A DNA stretch of 64,000 bases from a virus: positions 32,001-96,000 of the IMG/VR virus record IMGVR_UViG_3300031576_000006. One strand, written 5' to 3'. Shown in pieces: positions 9,661 through 50,690 of the stretch; the first letter of the stretch is position 1, and every line of letters starts with the position of its first letter. The position numbers were made by a program, and so were the translations under genes. The notes under the pieces are model-generated. The model was given only the letters and a program-made list of their open reading frames with translations, was not told the DNA's origin and ran no database searches.

Positions 9661-10085
9661 AACCTAATTCCAGCTGCTTTATCTGTAGCAGAAAATTCTA
9701 TAGAATCCCCTCTAGAAAGCAGGAAAGAAATTTTTGCTCTTATTCTTGTCGTAATAAATATTTTTCCAAAGAAAAGAGTTTTGTTTGGAAGGGCGGCAAG
9801 CGAAATCAAGCTAAGGCTTATTCGGATGCCAGACTAAGAAGGGTTAAATATAAACAAATCGTAGTTAATTTGATGGGCGGCAGATGTCAGAATTGTCATT
9901 ACAATAAGTGCCTATCAGCTTTAGAATTTCACCATACCGATGACAATAAAGATCGCAATGTAAGGGATTTCGTAAGAGGAAGCTTAAGTAAAGCTATAAA
10001 AGAGGCTAAAAAATGTATACTTCTGTGCGCTAATTGTCACAGAGAAGAACACGAAAGGTTAAAGGAAAATGAAAAAAGAACTTGA
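9657..10085 (+). CDS. HNH endonuclease (free-standing homing-type)
   Basis: N-terminal CFIC...FCSYSC Zn finger and WKGG; CQNC...LEFHH...CILLCANCHREEH. Confidence 0.85.
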   Translation: MKPNSSCFICSRKFYRIPSRKQERNFCSYSCRNKYFSKEKSFVWKGGKRNQAKAYSDARLRRVKYKQIVVNLMGGRCQNCHYNKCLSALEFHHTDDNKDRNVRDFVRGSLSKAIKEAKKCILLCANCHREEHERLKENEKRT

Positions 10086-10650
10086 TGAGAGGTTGTGTAA
10101 AGAATTCCCCAATCTCTTTGCGGATCGCAATGGGGATATGATGTCTACCTGCATGGTTTGGGGTTTCGAACATAGCGATGGCTGGTTTGATATCATATAT
10201 GAAGCAGCTTCAAAGATTGAGCCGCTTATTGTCGCCATGAAAAAGGAACATCCAAATCTTGAATGGTACCCCAGAGCTTCTCAGGTCAAGGAAAAATACG
10301 GAACCTTGAGGTTCTACATGTCTTCCGAAACTGATGAAATGAGTAAGATTATTCAAGAAGCTGAAGATAAGAGCGAAGTAACCTGCGAAATATGTGGGCA
10401 ACCCGGAAAAACTCGCGGCATTGGATGGCTCAGCACCAACTGTTTAGAACACACAAGTAAGGAAGCTTTGGAATCTATGTATGAATATGTTTGTAAATAT
10501 AAAAAAGAGAACGACGAACGTCACGAAAAAATCATGTCTGACTTAGTAAAAAGCGGCCTTATTCCTAGAGAAGCCTTGAAGAAAATCACCGGACTCAGCG
10601 ATTGGTCTATCGATTCATACTTGGAAGGCTGTAAATCTGATAATGGTTGA
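10069..10650 (+). CDS. conserved phage hypothetical protein
   Basis: GWFDII...QVKEKYGTLRFY...TCEICGQPG motif family. Confidence 0.6.
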   Translation: MKKELDERLCKEFPNLFADRNGDMMSTCMVWGFEHSDGWFDIIYEAASKIEPLIVAMKKEHPNLEWYPRASQVKEKYGTLRFYMSSETDEMSKIIQEAEDKSEVTCEICGQPGKTRGIGWLSTNCLEHTSKEALESMYEYVCKYKKENDERHEKIMSDLVKSGLIPREALKKITGLSDWSIDSYLEGCKSDNG

Positions 10651-11176
10651 AATATTTACTTTCATAGATTTAGAACTGGCTCAGCCGTCAAGAAAACTTA
10701 TTCAGTTGGGCGCTGTGGTGGGAAATATTAAAACCGGCCAGGTTTTAGAACGTTTATCTGTTTTTGTTAATCCCCACGAACAGTTAAGTGAATTTATAAT
10801 TAATCTTACCGGTATTACCCAGGAGCAAGTTGATACGGGAACAACCCTTGAAAAAATGTATGAACAACTTTGCTCATTACATAAAAAGCATGGAAGCTAT
10901 CGTAATTTTGTTCAATGGGGCAGCGGTGATTCTGAGTGTATTAGAGAACAGATGGGATTAAATGGAGAAGTTTTTATTGGAGGTAGACGCACCATTGATG
11001 TAAAAACTATTTTTATTGCATGGCGATTATCTCAGGGCGAAAAACTTCAAAGTGGATTAGCAAAATCTTTGGTAAAATTGGGGTTAAAATTTGAAGGTAC
11101 CAAGCATAATGCTCTTTCGGACGCCGAAAATACTTTTAGGATTTTTATGGCACTTCAGAAAAAATTTAGAGCATGA
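10643..11176 (+). CDS. DEDDh 3'-5' exonuclease (DnaQ/ERI-1-like)
   Basis: IDLE, LTGITQEQVD, WGSGD, HNALSDAENT. Confidence 0.85.
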   Translation: MVEIFTFIDLELAQPSRKLIQLGAVVGNIKTGQVLERLSVFVNPHEQLSEFIINLTGITQEQVDTGTTLEKMYEQLCSLHKKHGSYRNFVQWGSGDSECIREQMGLNGEVFIGGRRTIDVKTIFIAWRLSQGEKLQSGLAKSLVKLGLKFEGTKHNALSDAENTFRIFMALQKKFRA

Positions 11177-16572: not shown

Positions 16573-16586
16573 AAAAACTTAATAAT
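16573..16586 (+). promoter_or_regulatory. putative late promoter core (copy 1)
   Basis: AAAAACTTAATAAT; the identical core occurs at 6 intergenic sites upstream of structural blocks. Confidence 0.65.
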
Positions 16587-21389: not shown

Positions 21390-21614
21390 TCAACAAATTC
21401 CTTCTTTTGCTAGCAAATGAATCCACACAATGTCTCGTTCTGGGGCGATCAACATCTTCTCTATTGTACCAAAGACTCCATTGATTTCAAGCTGTTTACC
21501 TACGTGTAGGTTTCCAAGAACTTCACTAACCTTATCGTACCTTAATGCGAAATTTATAATAGCTCTGCCTGGAGTTGGATCTTGCCCTATTACGGTTGCG
21601 CCCGTGATTGTCAT
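21390..21614 (-). CDS. hypothetical protein
   Basis: ATGA coupling to CYTH gene. Confidence 0.55.
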   Translation of the reverse strand: MTITGATVIGQDPTPGRAIINFALRYDKVSEVLGNLHVGKQLEINGVFGTIEKMLIAPERDIVWIHLLAKEGIC

Positions 21615-22189
21615 TTTTTAAATTGCTCCCAGTTACTTTTCTTCATACGTTTTTGCGGCGTAATGCCAATGGCCGACATTTTTTGTTCCATGGCCTTCAC
21701 TTCAGCGATAGCTTCTTCCGCAGATTTGAATGGGTAATCCTTACGTGCTTCAATCTCGACCCTGCGACCAACTTCCTGCATGTTTTTGTCATAGATTATA
21801 TAATAAACGACATCAATTTTTTCAAAGTAGTAGATGTCACAGTATTTATAAACACGAAAGTTTTCTTTGAACCCCATAAGGCTTACAAATTTCATCACAA
21901 GCCATTCGGGAACGCCTTCTAGCAACGGTAGATCAACTTCTGTACGATGGTTATTATTTTTGTCATCAGTTTTGATTTTGATGGTCAATTCTGGACCTGG
22001 CCCGTTACGGAATCTAACGAATTCGAATGGCAATCCTGAACCGCTGTAGTAGATATCCCAGCTGGCGATTTCCAATCTTTTTTCGGGAGTAGACGCCTCT
22101 GCAAATTTTACGAAGTCAGCCAGCTTAATGTCTTCCGCCGAATACTTAAGCTCTAGCTCTTCGGTTCTAATATCGAATAATTGTTCCAT
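21611..22189 (-). CDS. CYTH/triphosphate tunnel metalloenzyme (class IV adenylyl cyclase-like)
   Basis: N-terminal ELELKY (ExExK), DIYY, VRFR, ELTIK, RTEVDL, VEIEA. Confidence 0.8.
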   Translation of the reverse strand: MEQLFDIRTEELELKYSAEDIKLADFVKFAEASTPEKRLEIASWDIYYSGSGLPFEFVRFRNGPGPELTIKIKTDDKNNNHRTEVDLPLLEGVPEWLVMKFVSLMGFKENFRVYKYCDIYYFEKIDVVYYIIYDKNMQEVGRRVEIEARKDYPFKSAEEAIAEVKAMEQKMSAIGITPQKRMKKSNWEQFKK

Positions 22190-23191: not shown

Positions 23192-24184
23192 TCATGCCGC
23201 CCTGGACATTTCAACTGCAGTTTTCAATGCTTTCTTATTCATGGCTGCACCGGTACCAAACCACAATGAATCCAATCGAGTAGATTCATTGGTGCCGCGC
23301 TCATATTGCAAGTATTCAGTTACTGAATTATAAGCTGCCCACATAGTGCCTTTAACACCGGGAAGATCATTGCCACGGCCTTTTTCGAAAAGCTCAGTAA
23401 TCCGGCCCATAACCCGCTTCCCACTGGTCAATTCTTCACCAGTAATAAGAGCTTCCTCTTCTTGCTTCGGAGTGGCAAATACGATTTTAACGTATTTCTC
23501 AAGATCTTTGCGATTGATTTCGCGAGAAGCAAGTATACGAAATTGTTCGGCAGTTGATTCAAAGGATTGATCTGCAATGTTTATCACTTCGCGGATTTCC
23601 TCCAAAGTTTTAACAATGTCACCTGTGTGTTTCACTTTGAGAAGCTGTGAACCGCCATTTTGGATGGCCATGGTCAAAGTGTTGTTGCAAACAACGCGAA
23701 CGGGCGTATAGCCGATGCGGATCGCCAAGGTACCGTCGTGGCTATTCGACATAAGAATGTACTTTTTAATGCGGTCGTCTGACTTTGAGACGATCACTGA
23801 ATCAGGGCGATTCATGGCCGCAAGAATCCAAACCCGGCGACCGTTCATCAAAGAACCGGCTGTTTCGAGAGAGGCTTCTTTTGCGTCCAAGAACGGTTGG
23901 AAGAACTGGAATGCTTCTCTGTTTTGAAGCACTTTGTAGTTTTTACCTACAACGCCAAGAATTGCGCCGTCGTCTTTGCGGTAAGTCGCGACGTGCGTCT
24001 TGATCAATTCGCCGCCGAGTTCTGGAACTACAGCAAGCTCTTTCGTACCAACTTCCCAATTGAGCTTTGCTACCATGATGCCTTCTTCAATGGTAGGAGC
24101 GATTGGGAGAACGGTTCCTAGGCGATGCCAGGGAATTTCGTTCACCGAAAACATTGTATCTTTTTCTTGGATCTCATGTGCCAT
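23192..24184 (-). CDS. DUF932-family phage/plasmid protein (TIGR03299-like)
   Basis: MAHE...PWHRLG, YKVLQNREAF, ETAGSL..GRRVW, NSHDGT, TPVRVVCNNTL, GTMWAAYNSVTEY. Confidence 0.85.
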   Translation of the reverse strand: MAHEIQEKDTMFSVNEIPWHRLGTVLPIAPTIEEGIMVAKLNWEVGTKELAVVPELGGELIKTHVATYRKDDGAILGVVGKNYKVLQNREAFQFFQPFLDAKEASLETAGSLMNGRRVWILAAMNRPDSVIVSKSDDRIKKYILMSNSHDGTLAIRIGYTPVRVVCNNTLTMAIQNGGSQLLKVKHTGDIVKTLEEIREVINIADQSFESTAEQFRILASREINRKDLEKYVKIVFATPKQEEEALITGEELTSGKRVMGRITELFEKGRGNDLPGVKGTMWAAYNSVTEYLQYERGTNESTRLDSLWFGTGAAMNKKALKTAVEMSRAA

Positions 24185-25104: not shown

Positions 25105-25134
25105 ATCGCTAACTTAGGCCAAAAACTTAATAAT
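25105..25134 (+). promoter_or_regulatory. putative late promoter (copy 3)
   Basis: ATCGCTAACTTAGGCCAAAAACTTAATAAT. Confidence 0.7.
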
Positions 25135-25174: not shown

Positions 25175-25924
25175 ATGGGCGGAATGATAGGAAAAGATAG
25201 ATTGATTTTTGATCCAACGGATACCACTCAAGGTGACAATGTTGGAGCTTTCATACGTGCCAGTGACGGCACCTTGATCACTCATACGGCTGTCGGCCCT
25301 AAAAAGGCTCTTGATGTAAATATCGTCGCGGGTCCCGACGACCCAGTTTATGATGAAGATTCTGCTTCTGCAAATGGCGATAAGCTTATGTCTGTCGGCG
25401 CAGTTAGACAAGATGCTTTGGCATCAAGCGTTGACGCTGACGGCGACTATGCCTGGTTTAAATTAAACAGCCGTGGCGCACTATGGACAGCACCTGTTGG
25501 TACGGTTGCCGATGACGCAGCTGATACTGAAAACCCGGTAAAGATCGGTTCGCGGTCTGTTTCTGGCGCAGCCTTACTCGCTGTTTCATCTAACAATGAC
25601 CGCGCTGATTTGATTTCAGATAAATATCGTAGGATTTATATTAATGACAGCCCAAACATTGGACTGGCATCTGTAGCTGTGCCCGTCGATACCACTGCCG
25701 GTGGGACTGCGATACCAACAACAGCTTTAGCCGGTAGACGACGAATTATGGTTCAGAACCTCGGAACAAAAGATATTTACGTAGGACCTGCAGGTGTAAC
25801 AGATACATCTGGCCTTAGAGTCGCGAATGGTGCAACTCTATCTCTCGAAATTGGCGAAAACATACTCCTTAAAGCCATTGCCGCTTCTGGTTCTCAAGAT
25901 GTTCGAGTGTTCGAATTAGCATAA
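25175..25924 (+). CDS. putative virion structural/decoration protein
   Basis: Ala/Gly/Asp-rich; C-terminal beta-sandwich RRRIMVQNLG..DIYVG. Confidence 0.5.
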   Translation: MGGMIGKDRLIFDPTDTTQGDNVGAFIRASDGTLITHTAVGPKKALDVNIVAGPDDPVYDEDSASANGDKLMSVGAVRQDALASSVDADGDYAWFKLNSRGALWTAPVGTVADDAADTENPVKIGSRSVSGAALLAVSSNNDRADLISDKYRRIYINDSPNIGLASVAVPVDTTAGGTAIPTTALAGRRRIMVQNLGTKDIYVGPAGVTDTSGLRVANGATLSLEIGENILLKAIAASGSQDVRVFELA

Positions 25925-25931
25925 GGTAAAA

Positions 25932-26177
25932 ATGCAAATCACCCAGAAAGATAAATCAAATGCTGAAAATTTGTTGCGTGCTTTAAACAAAGCACGCTTC
26001 AATGATATTGAAGGTGTTGAAGTTTTGGCGCTGGCTGATGTTTTCAAATGGGCTTCTGGACTCGTGAAAAGAATTGATGAAGACCTTATACTTCAACAAG
26101 CCCTATCTAAGGCCACGATTCAAACTCCAGATGAATCTATAAAATCTGAAGAAAAATCCCAGCCTCAAACACCATAG
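25932..26177 (+). CDS. hypothetical protein (possible chaperone)
   Basis: Small helical ORF in the late block. Confidence 0.5.
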   Translation: MQITQKDKSNAENLLRALNKARFNDIEGVEVLALADVFKWASGLVKRIDEDLILQQALSKATIQTPDESIKSEEKSQPQTP

Positions 26178-26186
26178 AGAGGTTTC

Positions 26187-27680
26187 ATGGGCGGTCTAGA
26201 AAAAGATACAGAATACGGTAAAGCACTATCGGGATCTATCACTGGCGTCGGCCAAAGTGTAGATATTTTTGATTCCAATTCCAATACCAGGACTATTCAG
26301 CTTGCTGGCACATGGTCTGGTACCTTAGTTGTAGAAGCCAGTAATGACAATGTTACCTACACAACTCTCTCAATTTTAAAATTAAGTTCATTTACATTCA
26401 TCGCTTCGTTAACGGTCAGTGGCATGTACATAGTAAATGGAGGTGGATATAGCCATCTTCGTGTAAGATCCACCGCCTGGACGAGCGGCACTGTAGATAT
26501 CTCTGCTCGTGGTACAGATGCAGCTTCCTCGATTCACTCTCAGTCTACCGTCCGAGGATCAGACGGAACCCAAATCGGAAATGCTTTTGACGCTCTTAAA
26601 ATAGGCATACAGGGTAGCGATGGAAATTATGTTGCAGATGTAGAGTTAGTTAATAGCAAGCGAAGACTTCTTACTGATGCCATTGTAACCGTTGAAGAGA
26701 TCTTTGGACAAGATCCCTTCCCAGATACATTTTTTACTATTGTAAATGCTGGCGCTGCTGGAACCACAATAAGAGTACAGGTTGCGGCAACAACTGGAGA
26801 TCCAACGACTCCAGATAGAGATATCGCAGCGGTTGATCTCACTTATACTCTTGTGGCGGCTGACGTTGGTGATGAGATAAAACTCAGAGACAATATTATA
26901 ACCTACCTGAACGCTCAATCTTCATTCAGTGCAAGCCTTAAGGCTCAAAAAGTAAAAGATCTGGCTATTGTTCACATTACCTCCAAGTTTCGTTCGATGA
27001 CTGGAGAATTTTATGAGAGGCCGGGTGTCAACGGTTTTCAGGTCACAACTACCGGAGCTACCTCAGTTCTTGTTGCCTTTGACAATGTAAAATCTCGCGG
27101 TAAGGCAACTTCTCTCGCGAGAGATCCAGATTCGCCGCACAGACTTGGAATTCTTGGTATTTCAGGTTCGGTAACTGTAACTCCCGGTGGAATTTCCGAT
27201 CTATTCATTGACAAACTACTCAATGTTGCCTCACCTGACATGCTTGTAAACGGTTCTGTCACCCCAGTAACTTTTACGCTTCCAACATCCTCACTGAATG
27301 ACAAGTATGTACAAAGACTCAGATTAGTAGCTAACGGTAATGGAATAAAATTTGGTCAATTCCTAAGTCAGAATAGCTCACTAACGACGGGCCTTTTGAT
27401 AGAGATTAAAAGTGACAATATTGTGACGACCTTACCCGTAATAAAATCAACAGACGACCTGAAGCATTTATTTTCCTTTCCCCCTACAGGATTTTCTCTA
27501 CACGTCCAAGCTGGTCGAGATGATCTAACTGCGGAGTTTCAATTTGAAAATCCATTTGTTATCAGACGAACTGGAACCTTTACAACTGATGATTATCTTA
27601 AGGTCACGGTTCGGGACAATTTAACGAACAACATTTTATACCTTGAAAGCATAGCTTTCGGATTTGAAAAGGAGCCTTAA
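26187..27680 (+). CDS. putative virion structural protein
   Basis: N-terminal jelly-roll-like GTWSGTLVVEASND...LRVRSTAWTSG; Thr/Ser-rich. Confidence 0.5.
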   Translation: MGGLEKDTEYGKALSGSITGVGQSVDIFDSNSNTRTIQLAGTWSGTLVVEASNDNVTYTTLSILKLSSFTFIASLTVSGMYIVNGGGYSHLRVRSTAWTSGTVDISARGTDAASSIHSQSTVRGSDGTQIGNAFDALKIGIQGSDGNYVADVELVNSKRRLLTDAIVTVEEIFGQDPFPDTFFTIVNAGAAGTTIRVQVAATTGDPTTPDRDIAAVDLTYTLVAADVGDEIKLRDNIITYLNAQSSFSASLKAQKVKDLAIVHITSKFRSMTGEFYERPGVNGFQVTTTGATSVLVAFDNVKSRGKATSLARDPDSPHRLGILGISGSVTVTPGGISDLFIDKLLNVASPDMLVNGSVTPVTFTLPTSSLNDKYVQRLRLVANGNGIKFGQFLSQNSSLTTGLLIEIKSDNIVTTLPVIKSTDDLKHLFSFPPTGFSLHVQAGRDDLTAEFQFENPFVIRRTGTFTTDDYLKVTVRDNLTNNILYLESIAFGFEKEP

Positions 27681-27682
27681 GT

Positions 27683-28147
27683 ATGTGGATTCCAGAGAAA
27701 AATTCTAATGGCATACCCATAAGTGCTCCGACTTTCGAAGATGTTGGCAATCTCACTCCAGTATGGAAGGGTTTTTTGTACGTTGCTGCGCCTATGTCTT
27801 TGAGTATGTTTGATCAAGTTATTACTAGCCAGGAAAGGCTCAGGGAGGGATGGTTCAGGATATTGCTAGATGGACACATTGGAGATTACATAGAATGCTC
27901 TATTGTGGACAAGGATGATGTCTTAGGAATGTTCTCTGCACTGAATTTAGTGGTTGGTGTAGACGTTCTTGAAATAAAAAAATATGTCAAAACAGAATAC
28001 GTAGCCCCTGAAGATAAAGGTAGACAAGAATTCAAATCAAATTCTGTGTCTGAATTGATGCCAGGTCTTTTTTTAAGGGTCAGCTATCTAAATATAGGAT
28101 CGGAGCCGGTAACCTTTACTGTTACTAAGAAATTTTATGAAGCTTAA
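27683..28147 (+). CDS. putative virion protein
   Basis: Late block, beta-rich. Confidence 0.45.
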   Translation: MWIPEKNSNGIPISAPTFEDVGNLTPVWKGFLYVAAPMSLSMFDQVITSQERLREGWFRILLDGHIGDYIECSIVDKDDVLGMFSALNLVVGVDVLEIKKYVKTEYVAPEDKGRQEFKSNSVSELMPGLFLRVSYLNIGSEPVTFTVTKKFYEA

Positions 28148-28290
28148 TATAAACGGAAAAGAAGTGGATCTAATCATAAATGGCGAAATTCCAGATTTTT
28201 TGGCTAAAAAAGTCAAACTGGCAGATGAAGGATTGACTCCTGATGAAGTGGTACGAAAACGTCGGGAAGAATTGAAGAAATCGGAAGAAA

Positions 28291-28554
28291 ATGAAGAATA
28301 ATTGCAGAATTTGTCGATATTTTTGGAACAATCTCATTGCGGTTGATCAATTGGTTAATACCATTTTTGGTGGTGACCCTGATGAAACCATTAGCTCTCG
28401 AATGGGCAAGTGGGGCATTCACTACAAAGACGATCATAATAATTGGCGTCATAAGTTCGCTAAGGGTCTTTGCTGGCTTCTAAATCTCATCGACAAAGAT
28501 CACTGCAATAAATCCATCGAGTCAGATGAAGGCAATAAAGAGGTAATAGAGTAA
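28291..28554 (+). CDS. conserved phage protein of tail/lysis regions
   Basis: NLIAVDQLVNTIFGGDPDETISSRMG...LC..L..IDKDHC motif. Confidence 0.6.
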   Translation: MKNNCRICRYFWNNLIAVDQLVNTIFGGDPDETISSRMGKWGIHYKDDHNNWRHKFAKGLCWLLNLIDKDHCNKSIESDEGNKEVIE

Positions 28555-28907
28555 TGAATCTTAAGCTTTTTGCCGAAAAATGGAAAGATCTAATAGATAA
28601 GGCTAACTCTCGTGGTATTCCACTGCCTATGGTTAGAGATAAAGGCAAGGCTTCGATTACGGCTACACTTGTTGTAATTTCTTCAGGCCTGTGTGGTATT
28701 TCCATACTCATGATGTTGGCAGTATTTATATCCAAAATGACCGCCTTCTTTATGCTCAATGATGCCACTTTCAATATCATGAAAGAAGCATTTAGCTCCT
28801 CATTCCAATTCTTTATTGCATCTCTTGGCGGCTATCTTGGCCGTAAAATGCAGAAAAATGGTAATGATGTTACGCTCGACGAGAAAAAAGATCCCCCTAA
28901 AGAATAA
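28554..28907 (+). CDS. putative holin (2 TM)
   Basis: Two TM segments, charged C-terminal tail, end of late block. Confidence 0.45.
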   Translation: MNLKLFAEKWKDLIDKANSRGIPLPMVRDKGKASITATLVVISSGLCGISILMMLAVFISKMTAFFMLNDATFNIMKEAFSSSFQFFIASLGGYLGRKMQKNGNDVTLDEKKDPPKE

Positions 28908-28913
28908 AAATTC

Positions 28914-28942
28914 TTGTATCTATTAATCAATTGGGTTAGTAT
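28914..28942 (+). promoter_or_regulatory. sigma70-like promoter, probably leaderless transcript
   Basis: TTGTAT-N17-TAGTAT-N6-ATG(28949). Confidence 0.6.
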
Positions 28943-28948
28943 TGATAC

Positions 28949-29203
28949 ATGATTGATCGTACTAAAAAATACAAAGTCGTAGGATATAATACGCCATGGT
29001 CCCCACCATTACCATCGGTCAACGAATACGACTTAAAATGGGCTCAAGAACTAAAAGACGTATATGGACTCAATCTAGATGTGCAAGTAATTGCATTAAA
29101 CTGGCGAACTTTCTCAAGCGATCTGTATTGTGCCGGATGGGTAGCAGACTCTAAAGAAAGCATCGAACGTTGTTTCGGTGTAGTCCTGGAGGAAATCCAG
29201 TGA
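28949..29203 (+). CDS. hypothetical protein
   Basis: First gene of the inserted operon; WRTFSSDLYCAGW motif. Confidence 0.55.
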   Translation: MIDRTKKYKVVGYNTPWSPPLPSVNEYDLKWAQELKDVYGLNLDVQVIALNWRTFSSDLYCAGWVADSKESIERCFGVVLEEIQ

Positions 29204-29397
29204 GGTTTGATCCAAGATCCACCAAACACCCCGACGAACCTTACGTCTCAAGCCCAGACTGGGCGATTCAAAAGAATAATTTTTTAATCAATAAACAAGA
29301 AGTTAAGGCGTGTAACGCTAAAATGAATGGTAGGTTTCATTGGCCCAAGCGCGAAATACCGCCTGATATGGAGATTACAGATGGTTCTATCCGATAA
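29200..29397 (+). CDS. hypothetical protein
   Basis: GGAGG SD and GTGA coupling at 29200. Confidence 0.5.
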   Translation: MRFDPRSTKHPDEPYVSSPDWAIQKNNFLINKQEVKACNAKMNGRFHWPKREIPPDMEITDGSIR

Positions 29398-29641
29398 AGA
29401 AGCCAAGTTCATAGCAATTCTTTTGGACATGGCCAAAGATGAGTTCGCAAATCACGGCTGCAATGATCTATCAGACGAACTTAGAAACTTTTTCACAAAA
29501 GAAGAACAGGATAAGCTCAACAGAGATATGCACAATTGGAACGGTGACCCTGAAGAGTACCGTAGGGGTGAACCGCTTATGAATTATGACTGGCTTTGGA
29601 TGTCATTCTTTGCTGGTAAACTAAGAGGAGAAATAAGATGA
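29381..29641 (+). CDS. hypothetical protein
   Basis: GGAG SD before ATG 29381; FANHGCND motif. Confidence 0.55.
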   Translation: MVLSDKEAKFIAILLDMAKDEFANHGCNDLSDELRNFFTKEEQDKLNRDMHNWNGDPEEYRRGEPLMNYDWLWMSFFAGKLRGEIR

Positions 29642-30672
29642 ACTTTAATCGCAGGCCCAGACTAGATATGGGCTATGGCAACCCCGGATTCCTTCAGTCA
29701 TACTGGCAGGAAGTTGGCCTGAGATTTCTTTCCAATCCACTAATAAGTCAAATGAGTTATCCACATAGTAAAGCTACTCTTCCGGAATTAGCTAACTACA
29801 TCCGACTTATCCACAAGAAACATAAGAATGTAAAAATTACTGATAAGTCTCATATTGTAGTGACCAACGGAGCCGTTCAAGCTCTCTCTGCTGCAATGTT
29901 CTATTACCATAGAAAAAAGTACGTAGACTATATGTACGCCCCCATTCCTTATTGGGGTAGGTTCGATGACTTAGCCTCCAATCTACATATCACATTAGTC
30001 AATCAATGGTTAATGGATGACACTAAAACTGATTACCAACAGGCTACTGCAGTTAAGAAAGATAGTGGGGTAATTTCACTTATCACTTCACCCAACAATC
30101 CGGACGGACAGGATACTTCAAAGCTTCCAGCTACAATCAGAGATGCCTGTTATAATTGGTCACATTATACCGATAAGGTCGTCAAGTTCAAAGATGAGGT
30201 TGTAATCTTTTCACTATCTAAATTCTCTGGCCATTCTTCCTCACGTATAGGCTGGGCTATTACTGAAAATCCTGAGATTGCCGAAACTATGCAAAAGTAT
30301 ATAGACACCTTTACTAGTGGAGTCAGTATAGATGCTCAAGTGAAGGCATCCAGAATTTTGTCTTATATGAATTCAAACAATGATTTCGTGTTTGATAGTT
30401 TGGCTGGAATCATAAAGAAAAGAAATTTCATATTAAGAAAGCTTGTAAAACATACACAGCTTCCAATTAAGATCCTATCAAGACAAGGCATGTTTTTATA
30501 TGTCGAATGCGATCCAGACTTAGTTAAAAAGCTTAATGTAGAATGTACAAACGGTAAGTACTTCGGAGACAACGAAGATCGACACAGATTTAATATTGGC
30601 GTCACTGAAGAAGTGTTTGTAGAGTTTGTTTCGAGACTTACACAAGTAAGTAAAGATTACATTAAAACGTAA
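29638..30672 (+). CDS. PLP-dependent fold-type I enzyme, TAA1/TAR/alliinase-like aminotransferase
   Basis: HIVVTNGA, TSPNNPDG, DACYNWSHYT, FSLSK(PLP Lys)FSGHSSSRIGWA, GVS..AQV, C-terminal R(FN). Confidence 0.85.
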   Translation: MNFNRRPRLDMGYGNPGFLQSYWQEVGLRFLSNPLISQMSYPHSKATLPELANYIRLIHKKHKNVKITDKSHIVVTNGAVQALSAAMFYYHRKKYVDYMYAPIPYWGRFDDLASNLHITLVNQWLMDDTKTDYQQATAVKKDSGVISLITSPNNPDGQDTSKLPATIRDACYNWSHYTDKVVKFKDEVVIFSLSKFSGHSSSRIGWAITENPEIAETMQKYIDTFTSGVSIDAQVKASRILSYMNSNNDFVFDSLAGIIKKRNFILRKLVKHTQLPIKILSRQGMFLYVECDPDLVKKLNVECTNGKYFGDNEDRHRFNIGVTEEVFVEFVSRLTQVSKDYIKT

Positions 30673-30949
30673 AGCCAAACATCAATCGACCTTCTTTATT
30701 ATTCCCTTCAATTGATATGTATTTGTTAATCACAGCCCTAGCATTATGACCAGTACTAAAGATGATCAATGGCATAGTGTAAGGAACAAGTACCTCGCTG
30801 ACAAAAGGACCGGCCACTTTCTTAGCCTGCATCTCACCACGCTGTACCATTTCCCTAAACTCCTTATTCTGTGCGTAGTAAGCCTCTGGAGTCTTATTAC
30901 ACTCGTATCCACTGACACACATAGCAATAACGAACGCTTCTAACCACAT
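30662..30949 (-). CDS. small secreted/membrane protein ending in a beta-signal-like FGFTF
   Basis: Start trimmed to ATG 30949, 6 nt after a -10 box; hydrophobic N-terminus. Confidence 0.5.
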   Translation of the reverse strand: MWLEAFVIAMCVSGYECNKTPEAYYAQNKEFREMVQRGEMQAKKVAGPFVSEVLVPYTMPLIIFSTGHNARAVINKYISIEGNNKEGRLMFGFTF

Positions 30950-30955
30950 ACTGAC

Positions 30956-30984
30956 AATATACCACATGTCAGCACTTTGTGCAA
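30956..30984 (-). promoter_or_regulatory. sigma70-like promoter, probably leaderless transcript
   Basis: TTGCAC-N17-TATATT-N6-ATG(30949), with extended TG. Confidence 0.6.
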
Positions 30985-31005
30985 TTAACACCAATATCCA
31001 ATGAT

Positions 31006-31035
31006 ATCGCTAGCTTAGCTCAAAAACTTAATAAT
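31006..31035 (+). promoter_or_regulatory. putative late promoter (copy 4)
   Basis: ATCGCTAGCTTAGCTCAAAAACTTAATAAT. Confidence 0.7.
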
Positions 31036-31082: not shown

Positions 31083-31475
31083 ATGAAAAAGCTGCCGGAC
31101 ATAATTAAATTTGTGTCTCTTGAATCCGTTGGTGAGAACACTGGTCACCGATATGTTGGGTCTTTTCGACTCAAAGTTTTAATAACTCATGATCAACGTT
31201 TTGCCATTGAGCGTACATATAAAGAGATGTTGCCTGATGATGTTGGCGTCATTCAAGAGATTAAAATCAGATGTGGCGCTATAGCCGAGCTTGAGCATCG
31301 TGTCGTTGAAGCTCCATTATGGTGGAGAGATTCACGCAATGGTAGAGACCTTATCGATTCACAGCCCCTATATGACATGATGATCCATATCTCTGAAAAG
31401 TACGAAGAATGGAAATCTGAACTTCAAAAGGAAGTAGCTGAGCCGAATGTACCTACCGAACAATCAAGTTCTTAA
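31083..31475 (+). CDS. putative tail assembly chaperone
   Basis: Position before the tape measure gene; ...VVEAPLWW motif. Confidence 0.5.
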   Translation: MKKLPDIIKFVSLESVGENTGHRYVGSFRLKVLITHDQRFAIERTYKEMLPDDVGVIQEIKIRCGAIAELEHRVVEAPLWWRDSRNGRDLIDSQPLYDMMIHISEKYEEWKSELQKEVAEPNVPTEQSSS

Positions 31476-31953
31476 ATATATTAGGCTTTTGTCTATTTAT
31501 AATGTCAATAGTAATTCCATTGAGTGGTATGTAGAACAGGCCTATCGATACTATTCCAAGACCTACCATACCCCATTACACGTTGCTCGTAAGAATATGA
31601 TCCCAGCTGAAGTCGTCCAGATCTTTATGGAAGATGAGATGGCCGATATGAATCCTGAAGATGTCACGGCCCTTAAGGATAGACTTGTAAAAGTTCCAAA
31701 ACCTATGCTTAATGTCGAAGACTATCAACCTGAAGAAGACACTGAGCTTTCCGATGAAGAATGGGTTATGCAACAAATGGCTGAAGCTGCTAAGAATGAA
31801 AAGAATACAAAACCAAAGCCTAAGGCCAATCCTGGCCCAAGTATGGGAGATGCCATGTCGGCAGCCCAGAAGGCCGTTCAAAACCTATATTCTCAATTAA
31901 ACAAACCTACGCCTGATAAAGATGAAGGCGAAATCAAGTTCAATAAAGAGTAA
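31447..31953 (+). CDS. putative tail assembly chaperone 2
   Basis: Immediately upstream of TMP; RYYSKTYHTPLH, acidic tail. Confidence 0.45.
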   Translation: MYLPNNQVLKYIRLLSIYNVNSNSIEWYVEQAYRYYSKTYHTPLHVARKNMIPAEVVQIFMEDEMADMNPEDVTALKDRLVKVPKPMLNVEDYQPEEDTELSDEEWVMQQMAEAAKNEKNTKPKPKANPGPSMGDAMSAAQKAVQNLYSQLNKPTPDKDEGEIKFNKE

Positions 31954-31956
31954 TAA

Positions 31957-34290
31957 ATGCAAAGCGACTTAATCAAGCAGATTATCCTCAAATTTAAGAC
32001 AGAAGGCGCTGATCAGGTCAAGCGGGTCGCTGACTCGATGACTAAATCATTTAATCCTCGCGAGACCGAAAGGTTCATGCGTAACCTTGAGCAAGTCCAA
32101 CAGAAGTTTGGTAAGGCTGGCACTGGTATGAGCGCTGAGCTTAAAAAGGTTACAGAATATTTCAAAGAACTTAATAATCAGCACTTCCAGCGAGCCGAGC
32201 GTAACCTCGATCGTATGGGTAGACTTATTAAGAATCAGATCGAAAATATTGAACGCCTTAAAAGAGAGGGTGCTTCTGCTGAAGAGATCGGTAAACGTCA
32301 GACCACACTTAAGTCGGCCACTCAAAGCATGGAACTGTTAGCAAATCAAACTCCATATAAAAGAGATCAATTGCGCGACTATATGGAAGGTCAAATTCCA
32401 GGACTAACCCAAGTAAGACGTATTGGCGGTATGCTGTCTCCAGGCATGAAAATGGCCGGTGGAGCGGTAGTGGGTGCAGCTGGAGTAGCAAGTTTAGTAG
32501 CAAGTGCCACTAGCACCGTGAATGAGATTAAAAAAGAGAGCATGCAAAACCGCATCGCAGTTGCTGATATAATCAAATCACAAGCCTTGGATGTGTTTGG
32601 CGGTAATATGTCTCGTGCTGCACTTTATTCAAATAAGCAGCGCAGAGAAGGTATAGCTTCAGACCTTGGCACCCTACAAACTACACAAGATATTGCGACT
32701 GGCGCTAGAGGAATTGGCGGTACGCTGATGACTGTAGGCGGCGGTATTCTTGGCAGTGCATTTGGTCCTCTCGGAACGGTTGCTGGTGCGTGGGCTGGAA
32801 GTAAACTTGGCGGTATGTTAGGTTTAGGCGGTGCAGGAGATACCATTAATGCCGGTAAATACTTTTTAGCCGGTGGACGAGAAGCTGCAATTCAAAAGAA
32901 TAGACAGCTGGCGGAAGATAAAGCCGAGTCTCAAACAATGGATCTCGAATACTACAAAGAATTTGGTCGCAATGCTGAAATGCGATTCAATTATCAAAGA
33001 CAGTTAGGATTAGGAGATCAGACTGCCCTAGACGTTAGAGAACGATTCCGTGCAGCTGGAGTGTTAGATGAGGGTCAAATAGCTCAGTCAATGCTCAGCT
33101 TTCGCAGATTTGGAGCGCGTACAGCACCGACTGTTGGTGCTCAAACTGCCGAGATGGCTAAACAAATGGGCATGTCACAAGAGTCCGCACAGATGTTAAT
33201 GCAGAACGTTGCAGGAGTTAATCGTGGTGGTATTGGTACAGCAAAGAAGGATTTGGAAGAACTCTTTAGACGTGCAGTAGCTTCAGGGGTTACTGATTCA
33301 GGTCTAATCGAAGAATATCAGAAATCAGCTACCGGCTTAATGCAAGTATTGGGATCTCGTATGAATGCCGGTCAGATTGCCGGAGCGATGAATAGCTTTA
33401 TGTTAGAAGGTGCTGGTCAGCGTGAGATTGCAGCTATACAACCAGCCATACAAGCTTTCGGCCAAACAATGAAAGGCGCTAGCCCATTAATGCAGGCCAA
33501 GAGCACTGCTGGTATATTAAATCTATCTCGTGATGCTAAAGGTAATGTCAATATGTTGGCATTACAATATCTCAGCAACCTTAATCCCACAGAATTGGCA
33601 ACACTGAATGAGAACGATCCGGTTTTACAGCAACTGAATGAGAACGATCCGGTTTTACAGCAGATGGGTATTACTGCTGACAAGATCAAAACTTTCAGAA
33701 GAGATCAATCTCTCGGAACTCTGCGATCTAACCTCGGTGCAGAGCCTGGCCTTAAACTGTTAAATAAAGCTCAGACAAAAGGTGCAAATCTTACAGAAGG
33801 TGACCAGCGAATGCTTGCTATTGGCTTCGGACATACCGGTACTGGCGATATTCGAACAATTCAATCATTCCTTAAAGCCAATCTCGAATCAGCTGGCGGT
33901 GCAGGCGAAGGATTAACCTTTCAAGGTCCTGGTGGAGCACAGATAGGTTTGAAAGCTGTGCAAACTATGACAGCCGAACAAGTTATGGCTGATCAAGCTG
34001 GAACTCCAATATCGGCAGGCGTTGGGGTAAGAGCTAAGGCCGAAGGTCAAACCGAATTAGACCGACAGGTATATGAAAAAGTTTCTAAGAATATAGACAG
34101 CGTTTATGCGGTTTTTAAAGAACAGACCACACAAGTAATGCAGGATCTTGATAAGAACGTTTTGGCAGGTCCTATCGGTGAAATCGGTGATGCTGCACAA
34201 CGCATTGCTAATGCACTTTCCAGTGCCGCTGATCGTATTGAGGGTAATTCTTCCCATAGACAATCCTCTTCAAAACAGCCGGGTGAATAA
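31957..34290 (+). CDS. tape measure protein
   Basis: 777 aa, helical A/G/Q-rich with Gly-rich hydrophobic segments; lies between chaperones and hub. Confidence 0.75.
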   Translation: MQSDLIKQIILKFKTEGADQVKRVADSMTKSFNPRETERFMRNLEQVQQKFGKAGTGMSAELKKVTEYFKELNNQHFQRAERNLDRMGRLIKNQIENIERLKREGASAEEIGKRQTTLKSATQSMELLANQTPYKRDQLRDYMEGQIPGLTQVRRIGGMLSPGMKMAGGAVVGAAGVASLVASATSTVNEIKKESMQNRIAVADIIKSQALDVFGGNMSRAALYSNKQRREGIASDLGTLQTTQDIATGARGIGGTLMTVGGGILGSAFGPLGTVAGAWAGSKLGGMLGLGGAGDTINAGKYFLAGGREAAIQKNRQLAEDKAESQTMDLEYYKEFGRNAEMRFNYQRQLGLGDQTALDVRERFRAAGVLDEGQIAQSMLSFRRFGARTAPTVGAQTAEMAKQMGMSQESAQMLMQNVAGVNRGGIGTAKKDLEELFRRAVASGVTDSGLIEEYQKSATGLMQVLGSRMNAGQIAGAMNSFMLEGAGQREIAAIQPAIQAFGQTMKGASPLMQAKSTAGILNLSRDAKGNVNMLALQYLSNLNPTELATLNENDPVLQQLNENDPVLQQMGITADKIKTFRRDQSLGTLRSNLGAEPGLKLLNKAQTKGANLTEGDQRMLAIGFGHTGTGDIRTIQSFLKANLESAGGAGEGLTFQGPGGAQIGLKAVQTMTAEQVMADQAGTPISAGVGVRAKAEGQTELDRQVYEKVSKNIDSVYAVFKEQTTQVMQDLDKNVLAGPIGEIGDAAQRIANALSSAADRIEGNSSHRQSSSKQPGE
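33603..33662 (+). repeat. perfect 30-bp tandem duplication in TMP
   Basis: ACTGAATGAGAACGATCCGGTTTTACAGCA x2 (LNENDPVLQQ x2). Confidence 0.95.
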
Positions 34291-50613: not shown

Positions 50614-50690
50614 TGCGGGGAAGAGCACCGGGCGCTCGTTGGCCTCATAAGCCAAAGAGAAGGTTGGTTCGATTCCACCCTCCACAACCA
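50614..50690 (+). tRNA. tRNA with CAU anticodon (Met, initiator-like, atypical)
   Basis: TGCGGGG/CTCCACA acceptor, GAGC/GCTC D stem, TTGGC-CTCATAA-GCCAA anticodon arm, GG-TTCGATT-CC T loop, encoded ACCA. Confidence 0.8.

Follow-up and report, generated by a model that had tools for sequence, protein, structure and literature searches.

A phage-type member of the TAA1/alliinase family of pyridoxal phosphate enzymes, carried in a virion-gene block of an IMG/VR phage record

The window analysed here is a stretch of 64,000 nucleotides, bases 32001-96000 of the 116,231-base IMG/VR virus record IMGVR_UViG_3300031576_000006, which is estimated to be about 76% complete. Near its middle, an open reading frame (ORF) of the plus strand encodes a pyridoxal phosphate (PLP) enzyme related to plant TAA1 and alliinase (Table 1). 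An earlier note on this DNA, made from its letters alone, had taken the gene for a phage gene. This was borne out by the virus record to which it belongs and by the virion genes on both sides of it. The adjoining ORFs include a match to a baseplate protein, and the long ones form part of a block that is conserved in related phages. Most other neighbours within the window received no name from PHROG and Pfam searches.

The start of the enzyme gene lies four nucleotides inside the preceding small ORF, whose TGA stop codon overlaps the enzyme ATG (ATGA). This arrangement suggests that translation of the enzyme is coupled to that of the small ORF, which has no family match and no counterpart in the related phage L075. 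The deposited gene call of the enzyme (P0001, 306 aa) begins at M39, 38 codons too late. The N-terminal LD..YGNP.F.Q block preceding M39 is conserved in the homologues and aligns with TAA1, so the 344-aa form is the correct one. The convergent ORF at the 3' end also lacks a family match, and it is kept beside the enzyme gene in related phages, with 27% identity in L002/L076 and 43% in L075.

Table 1. Positions of the enzyme gene, its sites and its flanking features in the window
Feature	Position	Strand	Description
Enzyme ORF	29638-30672	+	344 aa; PLP enzyme, phage-type branch of the TAA1/alliinase (Alliinase_C) family
Shine-Dalgarno sequence GAGGAG	29625-29630	+	7 nt before ATG 29638; read from the sequence letters
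Small ORF preceding the enzyme	29327-29641	+	104 aa; an internal ATG at 29381, after GGAG, would give 86 aa
Convergent ORF	30662-30994	-	110 aa; 11-nt overlap with the enzyme 3' end
K195 codon	30220-30222	+	PLP (Schiff-base) lysine in FSLSKFSGH; corresponds to TAA1 K217 in the HMMER alignment
Subclade-specific insertion, residues 123-144	30004-30069	+	from column statistics, alignment, secondary structure and predicted local distance difference test (pLDDT)
14-mer, nearest copy upstream of the enzyme	25121-25134	+	candidate phage-specific promoter
14-mer, following copy	31022-31035	+	ahead of the next virion-gene block (31083 onward)

The protein belongs to the TAA1/alliinase family rather than to the generic aminotransferases. 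In Pfam, Alliinase_C (PF04864) matched residues 10-247 with 129 bits (E 2.6e-37; cut-off 22 bits), against 73 bits (E 3.5e-20) for Aminotran_1_2 (PF00155), which matched best over the C-terminal part of the enzyme. The same preference was found in a six-frame search of the whole record. NCBIfam returned generic models only, all far under their cut-offs, the best being HisC with 47.6 bits where 276 are required, and a HisC or AspC identity was rejected accordingly. A sequence search of the PDB with HMMER placed Arabidopsis TAA1 (3bwn) first (E 3.3e-21, query residues 10-246) and garlic alliinase second (E 1e-15), followed by HisC and AspC at E>0.01. These results, together with the fold comparison and the residue markers described below, confirmed the earlier view that the likeness is specific to TAA1 and alliinase; the refuting outcome named in the earlier note, higher scores to the HisC or AspC families, did not occur.

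The alignment to 3bwn also showed that the motifs noticed in the letters are colinear with TAA1. They comprise GNP..YW, MSY, PEL..IH, IVV and TSPNNPDG, followed by D.(C/A)Y.W.HYT, FS.SK..GH..SRIGWA and GVS..QV. The whole list of motifs claimed for the protein was present. However, its last member, EEVFVEFVSRL (EDVFNVFLERL in TAA1), falls in the C-terminal stretch, where the alignment to TAA1 is not significant alone.

Residue conservation was examined in an alignment of 164 phage-type, 62 plant, 11 plant-like or chlamydial and 4 generic outgroup sequences. K195 was invariant in the phage-type, plant and outgroup sequences, and the equivalent residue of TAA1, Lys217, is its PLP lysine (PMC9231625). 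The residues K195, D169, N154, Y172, R203, R317, G14 and Y41 were each found in 97-100% of the phage-type sequences and were identical in plants. They were kept nearly throughout the alignment, with K195, D169, N154, Y172, R203, R317 and Y41 conserved in the outgroup as well. Judged from these residues, the enzyme looks intact and catalytically competent. A second set of positions was common to the phage-type and plant proteins and differed from, or was missing in, the four outgroup sequences: W23, H59, Q81 and the W174-P175 insertion, and further F191, H199, W206, G228-V-S230 and R262. The insertion at residues 123-144, with a confidently predicted helix at 132-141, was missing in more than 80% of the phage-type relatives and in plants.

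An AlphaFold2 model of the enzyme, built from 30 family members, reached a pLDDT of 93.4 and a predicted template-modelling (TM) score of 0.92. Foldseek matched this model to TAA1 (E 2e-23, TM 0.82) and to alliinase (E 3.7e-21, TM 0.83), and the next fold followed at E 1.9e-15, 6-8 orders of magnitude behind the two. Alliinase as the second-best fold match raises the question of whether the enzyme might be a C-S or beta-lyase, similar to alliinase, cystathionine beta-lyase or cysteine desulfhydrase, which would split a sulphur amino acid into pyruvate, ammonia and a thiol or sulfenic acid. PatB-type C-S lyases (8y54/9jwc) stood in the second tier of the Foldseek matches, and the reaction type switches easily within fold-type-I PLP enzymes. 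However, the significant sequence match to alliinase was confined to residues 143-242. Pfam found no EGF_alliinase domain (PF04863) in the enzyme, which begins 9 residues ahead of the motif of the catalytic domain. HMMER aligned Y13 of the enzyme with alliinase S63, a residue that helps bind the sulfoxide. Sulphur-metabolism genes were also missing from the neighbourhoods of the gene in other viruses, among the 25 of 47 neighbour families listed. We consider a lyase unlikely.

Relatives of the enzyme were numerous, and most were short. A word-based search of 5.8 billion proteins recovered 41 of them, nearly all metagenomic and 290-360 aa long. With phmmer, 1.84 billion representative proteins gave 830 matches at E≤1e-3, 453 at E≤1e-10 and 61 at E≤1e-30. 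The majority of the best 150 were short and phage-type, and the first land-plant proteins in the ranking (Diphasiastrum, Calypogeia) appeared at about 98 bits. IMG/VR contained homologues at 42 loci, whose enzymes are spread over most of the major branches in the tree of short proteins; a metagenome scan gave 5 loci. In 185,579 prokaryote species genomes, scanned with a pattern-based search, there were only 31 weak matches, the best of which, at 71 bits, lay below the plant matches. The best short matches among these prokaryotes were phage-like or phage contigs inside metagenome-assembled genomes (MAGs): L048 is identical to the contig of an IMG/VR record, and phage-type RNA ligases flank L045. 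No match was obtained by tblastn of the enzyme and of two distant family members, P0053 and P0033, against 50,697 deposited GenBank phage genomes, and our literature search found no publication describing phage-borne Alliinase_C or alliinase-family enzymes. From these sequences, the phage-type branch appears to be a compact form (about 300-360 aa) that is carried by many unrelated uncultured phages and is seen almost only there.

Two large IMG/VR contigs, L036 (582 kb) and L042 (391 kb), hold a 423-aa distant relative at 9806-11077. The closest member of the tree set, P0178, shares only 28% identity with this protein, which is neither clearly phage-type nor clearly plant-type.

The surroundings of the gene fall into at least four types across the viral loci: ribonucleotide reductase and exonuclease genes; UvsX, primase, DnaB, ClpP and a CYTH protein; a phrog_3704 protein, M15 peptidase, terminase and portal; and virion genes, as in the window, L002 and L075. 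ORF clustering found no recurrent partner gene in the 41 other viral loci, which represent at least four phage lineages. In a Pfam tally of 148 neighbour representatives, none of the 25 of 47 families listed occurred in more than three. The gene thus has the character of an auxiliary metabolic gene, being a cellular-type enzyme found in several unrelated phage lineages with no fixed phage partner. Profile searches of the record itself gave no match to a flavin monooxygenase (FMO) of the YUC type, to TPP_enzyme_N, as in the thiamine pyrophosphate (TPP) enzyme indole-3-pyruvate decarboxylase (IPDC), or to Thymidylat_synt, as in dUMP hydroxymethylase.

These searches bear on the proposal that the enzyme feeds indole-3-pyruvate or indole-3-acetic acid (IAA). 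A true tryptophan:pyruvate aminotransferase like TAA1 would produce indole-3-pyruvate in the infected cell, and host enzymes or a spontaneous reaction would turn this into IAA. No solved structure is closer than TAA1 in sequence or in fold, the relative P0023 is labelled L-tryptophan-pyruvate aminotransferase in the automatic annotation of the Joint Genome Institute (JGI), and the plant-type relatives of Parachlamydiaceae, in or beside trp operons, link the wider family to tryptophan. Nevertheless, the window protein shares only about 25% identity with TAA1 and lies outside the plant-type clade (97/98), and it differs in the C-terminal domain and at several conserved positions close to the motifs. 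The record lacks both the YUC-like and the IPDC-like enzyme, the other viral loci show no trp or auxin genes among the neighbour families listed, and no metabolic neighbour recurs in the 41 loci. The proposal was thus not supported by the genes of the record or of the other loci. TAA1 itself is promiscuous, acting on Phe, Tyr and Ala (PMC9231625), so homology says little about specificity. Taken together, we consider a dedicated tryptophan aminotransferase quite unlikely.

The neighbourhoods also bear on a role in a phage-specific modification pathway, such as DNA base hypermodification, nucleotide-sugar synthesis or virion decoration, in which the enzyme would not act on a central metabolite. 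Two phage lineages place the gene among ribonucleotide reductase, exonuclease, primase, helicase and recombinase genes, and here it is surrounded by virion genes. PLP enzymes are known in thymidine hypermodification (PMC8989533). However, those enzymes are decarboxylases modelled on the tryptophan-synthase-beta fold, and an identity with them was rejected because the fold differs. The record lacks a homologue of thymidylate synthase or dUMP hydroxymethylase, and the listed families include no recurrent neighbour of the gene that is a kinase, a transferase or a sugar-pathway enzyme. A modification pathway of this kind seems to us very unlikely.

The relation to the plant enzymes was examined in a careful tree of 50 rows (IQ-TREE, LG+C20 with posterior mean site frequencies, PMSF), in which supports are given as ultrafast bootstrap and Shimodaira-Hasegawa-like approximate likelihood ratio test (SH-aLRT) values. 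Plants were monophyletic in every tree (100). They belonged to a plant-type clade (97/98) with metagenomic full-length Alliinase_C proteins, some of which have EGF_alliinase, and with Parachlamydiaceae. The window protein fell outside this clade, in a separate clade of its own (97/99). The plant-type clade attached beside the short proteins P0122, P0138 and P0079, with moderate supports of 92/80 and 80/83, and when the tree was rooted on generic aminotransferases this attachment fell inside the phage-type radiation. The backbone supports of this tree were weak, at 20-70. FastTree and a quick IQ-TREE run likewise nested plants inside the phage diversity. On a set of 78 rows, however, a search constrained to keep the 57 phage-type rows together gave a tree better than the free quick tree by 41.6 log-likelihood units (p-AU 0.90 in the approximately unbiased test). 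Since the constrained tree scored better, the data do not reject plants as a sister group, and the quick trees are no reliable evidence for nesting. A placement of plants within the phage-type diversity was thus set aside, and the weak backbone allows no claim about the direction of transfer.

Within the plant-type clade, a MAG of Parachlamydiaceae (JBDHQB010000001.1, L046:5517-15265) carries an Alliinase_C gene of 389 aa (L046:7845-9014) inside a trp operon. The gene order is a SerA-like dehydrogenase with ACT, a class-V aminotransferase, the TAA-like gene, TrpD, TrpC, an unnamed ORF, TrpB, an unnamed ORF and TrpE. In a second Parachlamydiaceae MAG (L047:7773-9613) the homologue, with 58% identity, has TrpD directly downstream. 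As far as gene context can tell, this would tie the plant-type clade to tryptophan in bacteria too; no trp-operon context was seen for the phage-type genes. Proteins of about 530 aa, encoded in many Legionella genomes (L052-L059, L062, L063 and L073), gave a weak, full-length Alliinase_C match (65 bits in L052) and sit on a very long branch of the tree. With the Parachlamydiaceae, they place the cellular members found here mainly in amoeba-associated bacteria.

The earlier note had also seen in this gene a possible missing link in the evolution of TAA. The tree spoke against this, given that the clade of the window protein lies outside the plant-type clade and cellular plant-type relatives are closer to plants. 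Going by the sequences, the plant family has a large relative in the phage-type branch taken together, and the window gene would be no particular link. In a broader reading, the phage-type branch would be the pool that gave the plant-type TAA/alliinase clade, streptophyte TAA descending from a gene that phages moved between bacteria (e.g. Chlamydiae) and plant ancestors; alternatively, both the substrate and the role of the phage enzymes would be peculiar to them, without a plant counterpart. We hold this reading to be doubtful.

The contig was found to be sound at this place. The G+C content was even across the region (0.39-0.42). In two related lineages, L002/L076 and L075, which were assembled independently, the enzyme gene is followed in the same order by the convergent small ORF, by homologues of 31083-31475, 31447-31953 and 31957-34290, and by more of the block. 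The enzyme shares 42-46% identity with its counterparts in these phages, and the flanking virion proteins share 36-61%. The same downstream order and the similar divergence mark the enzyme gene as an old resident of the phage lineage, neither a chimera nor a recent insert. An artefact, in which a chimeric assembly had joined plant or algal DNA to a phage contig, found no support. Besides the even composition and the order of enzyme, small ORF and virion block in the two lineages, the bacterial-type Shine-Dalgarno sequence, the 4-nt overlap with the neighbour, the identical protein recorded on a 162,719-bp contig and the position of the protein outside the plant clade all stand against it. We regard an artefact as next to negligible.

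Upstream of the enzyme, the gene content varies. The island at 28907-29637 was compared with L075:4558-10000; the homologue of 28554-28907 lies 0.7 kb before the enzyme gene here and 5.4 kb before it in L075. The L075 island between this homologue and the enzyme holds different genes and sits just upstream of the conserved block.

Six exact copies of the 14-mer AAAAACTTAATAAT and a seventh with one mismatch were present, every one on the plus strand; 0.06 would be expected by chance. The exact copies stand directly before gene blocks, at 16573, 24297, 25121, 31022, 41568 and 51557, and the mismatched copy is at 32165. Four aligned copies have a wider conserved block in common. From this distribution, the motif is a candidate phage-specific promoter. 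There is no copy between 25134 and 31022. If the motif is a promoter, the lack of a copy between 25121 and the enzyme gene would probably make this gene the final one in a unit spanning 25175-30672.

This organization did not agree with the proposed sigma70 moron operon, a candidate that the promoter and terminator scan led us to reject. Only 7 sigma70-like sites were found where 12.9 were expected, none of them convincing upstream of the enzyme, and there was no plus-strand terminator after it. Moreover, the gene is joined to the upstream ORF by the ATGA overlap and is flanked by the 14-mer copies at 25121 and 31022, and its position has been kept in relatives whose enzymes are only 42-46% identical.

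Other features of the phage were noted in passing. A 192-aa ORF of the minus strand (window 21611-22189) belongs to the same cluster as CYTH-domain proteins that lie next to the enzyme gene elsewhere. The cluster occurs at eight loci, directly downstream of the gene in L027, L028, L029, L030, L032, L034 and L039 and nearby in L024; here it is 7.5 kb away and on the other strand. The link may reflect shared phage ancestry or a functional tie. A single tRNA-Met (CAT) lies among the virion genes on the plus strand (window 50614-50690). A search for the host by tblastn of the conserved neighbour 23192-24184 gave distant matches only, to phages of many hosts.

Considering all of this, we favour, with moderate confidence, a stand-alone homodimeric PLP enzyme of the amino-acid aminotransferase type, belonging to the phage-type TAA1/alliinase branch and acting on a host metabolite. 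Family homology predicts a homodimer with PLP bound to K195. The cofactor would be kept in place by D169, N154, Y172 and R203, and the alpha-carboxylate of an L-amino acid substrate by R317 together with the loop around G14. Because no neighbour recurs and no partner is present in the record, the enzyme most likely acts alone on a metabolite supplied by the host. Its reaction would then be that of an amino-acid:2-oxoacid aminotransferase with a free metabolite of the host, and the gene would be an auxiliary metabolic gene; beta-elimination by a C-S lyase is the second choice. As the long-standing closing gene of a virion-gene transcription unit, it would probably be expressed late.

Several observations weigh against this assignment. 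The Alliinase_C match spans only model positions 2-246 of 363, and the C-terminal third of the protein matches PF00155 instead. At a number of conserved positions the phage-type and plant proteins differ, namely R108 (84%)/S, N173/Y, C171/A, G284-M285/P-A and N319/S. Given the diverged C-terminal domain and these differing positions, substrate and reaction type are not transferable from TAA1 or alliinase. The extra conserved arginine, R108, might mean that the substrate is acidic or phosphorylated. Two other lineages have the gene amid replication and nucleotide-metabolism genes, so it may work in a pathway related to nucleic acids. The remainder of this incomplete record could contain partner genes, and for the phage-type branch as a whole, any function would be a prediction from homology.

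The main auxin pathway begins with the reaction of TAA1, and there is dispute over where the plant TAA/alliinase family came from (PMC5611494, PMC4667067). The diversity of the family lies mostly outside plants, and rooted histories of TAA need the phage-type sequences. Many unrelated phages, small ones included, keep a PLP enzyme of this branch. What the window adds is an instance of long-term residence in a virion operon, a negative test for sigma70 control, an AU test that tempers claims about plant origin, and the chlamydial trp-operon context. By itself, the window settles neither the origin of TAA nor the role of the enzyme in infection.

Among known systems, Arabidopsis TAA1/TAR (3bwn, 3bwo; PF04864) is the best structural match (TM about 0.8). 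It shares the PLP- and carboxylate-binding residues and the motifs TSPNNPDG, D.xY.W.xYT, FS.SK.xGH.xSRIGWA and GVS.xxQ with the phage enzyme. The two differ in that the identity is about 25%, the phage enzyme is 344 aa long and TAA1 391 aa, and the C-terminal domain of the phage enzyme is not recognised by Alliinase_C. The phage enzyme is also phage-borne, outside the plant-type clade and without a YUC partner, and it carries the phage-type residues at R108, N173, C171, G284-M285 and N319. Garlic and onion alliinase (1lk9, 2hor/2hox), the second-best fold match, resembles it in the central PLP-binding segment (E 1e-15). Unlike alliinase, the phage enzyme has no EGF-like N-terminal domain and shows no sign of lyase chemistry; the identity is about 19%, with significant alignment only over residues 143-242.

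The proteins of Parachlamydiaceae (L046, L044, L047) and the metagenomic proteins with EGF_alliinase (P0107, P0176) are, like the phage enzyme, non-plant members of the family with motifs in common. However, theirs are full-length Alliinase_C proteins (model match at 45-361 in L046) of 389-449 aa that group with plants (97/98). The L046 gene lies inside a trp operon and the L047 gene directly before TrpD, traits that the window enzyme does not have. The generic class I/II aminotransferases (HisC, AspC, PatB/MalY; PF00155) belong to the same superfamily and share the catalytic residues, and the C-terminal domain of the phage enzyme matches PF00155. They are set apart from it by a fold match 6-8 orders of magnitude weaker in E value, and the W174-P175 insertion, H59, F191, H199, W206 and GVS distinguish the phage enzyme from them.

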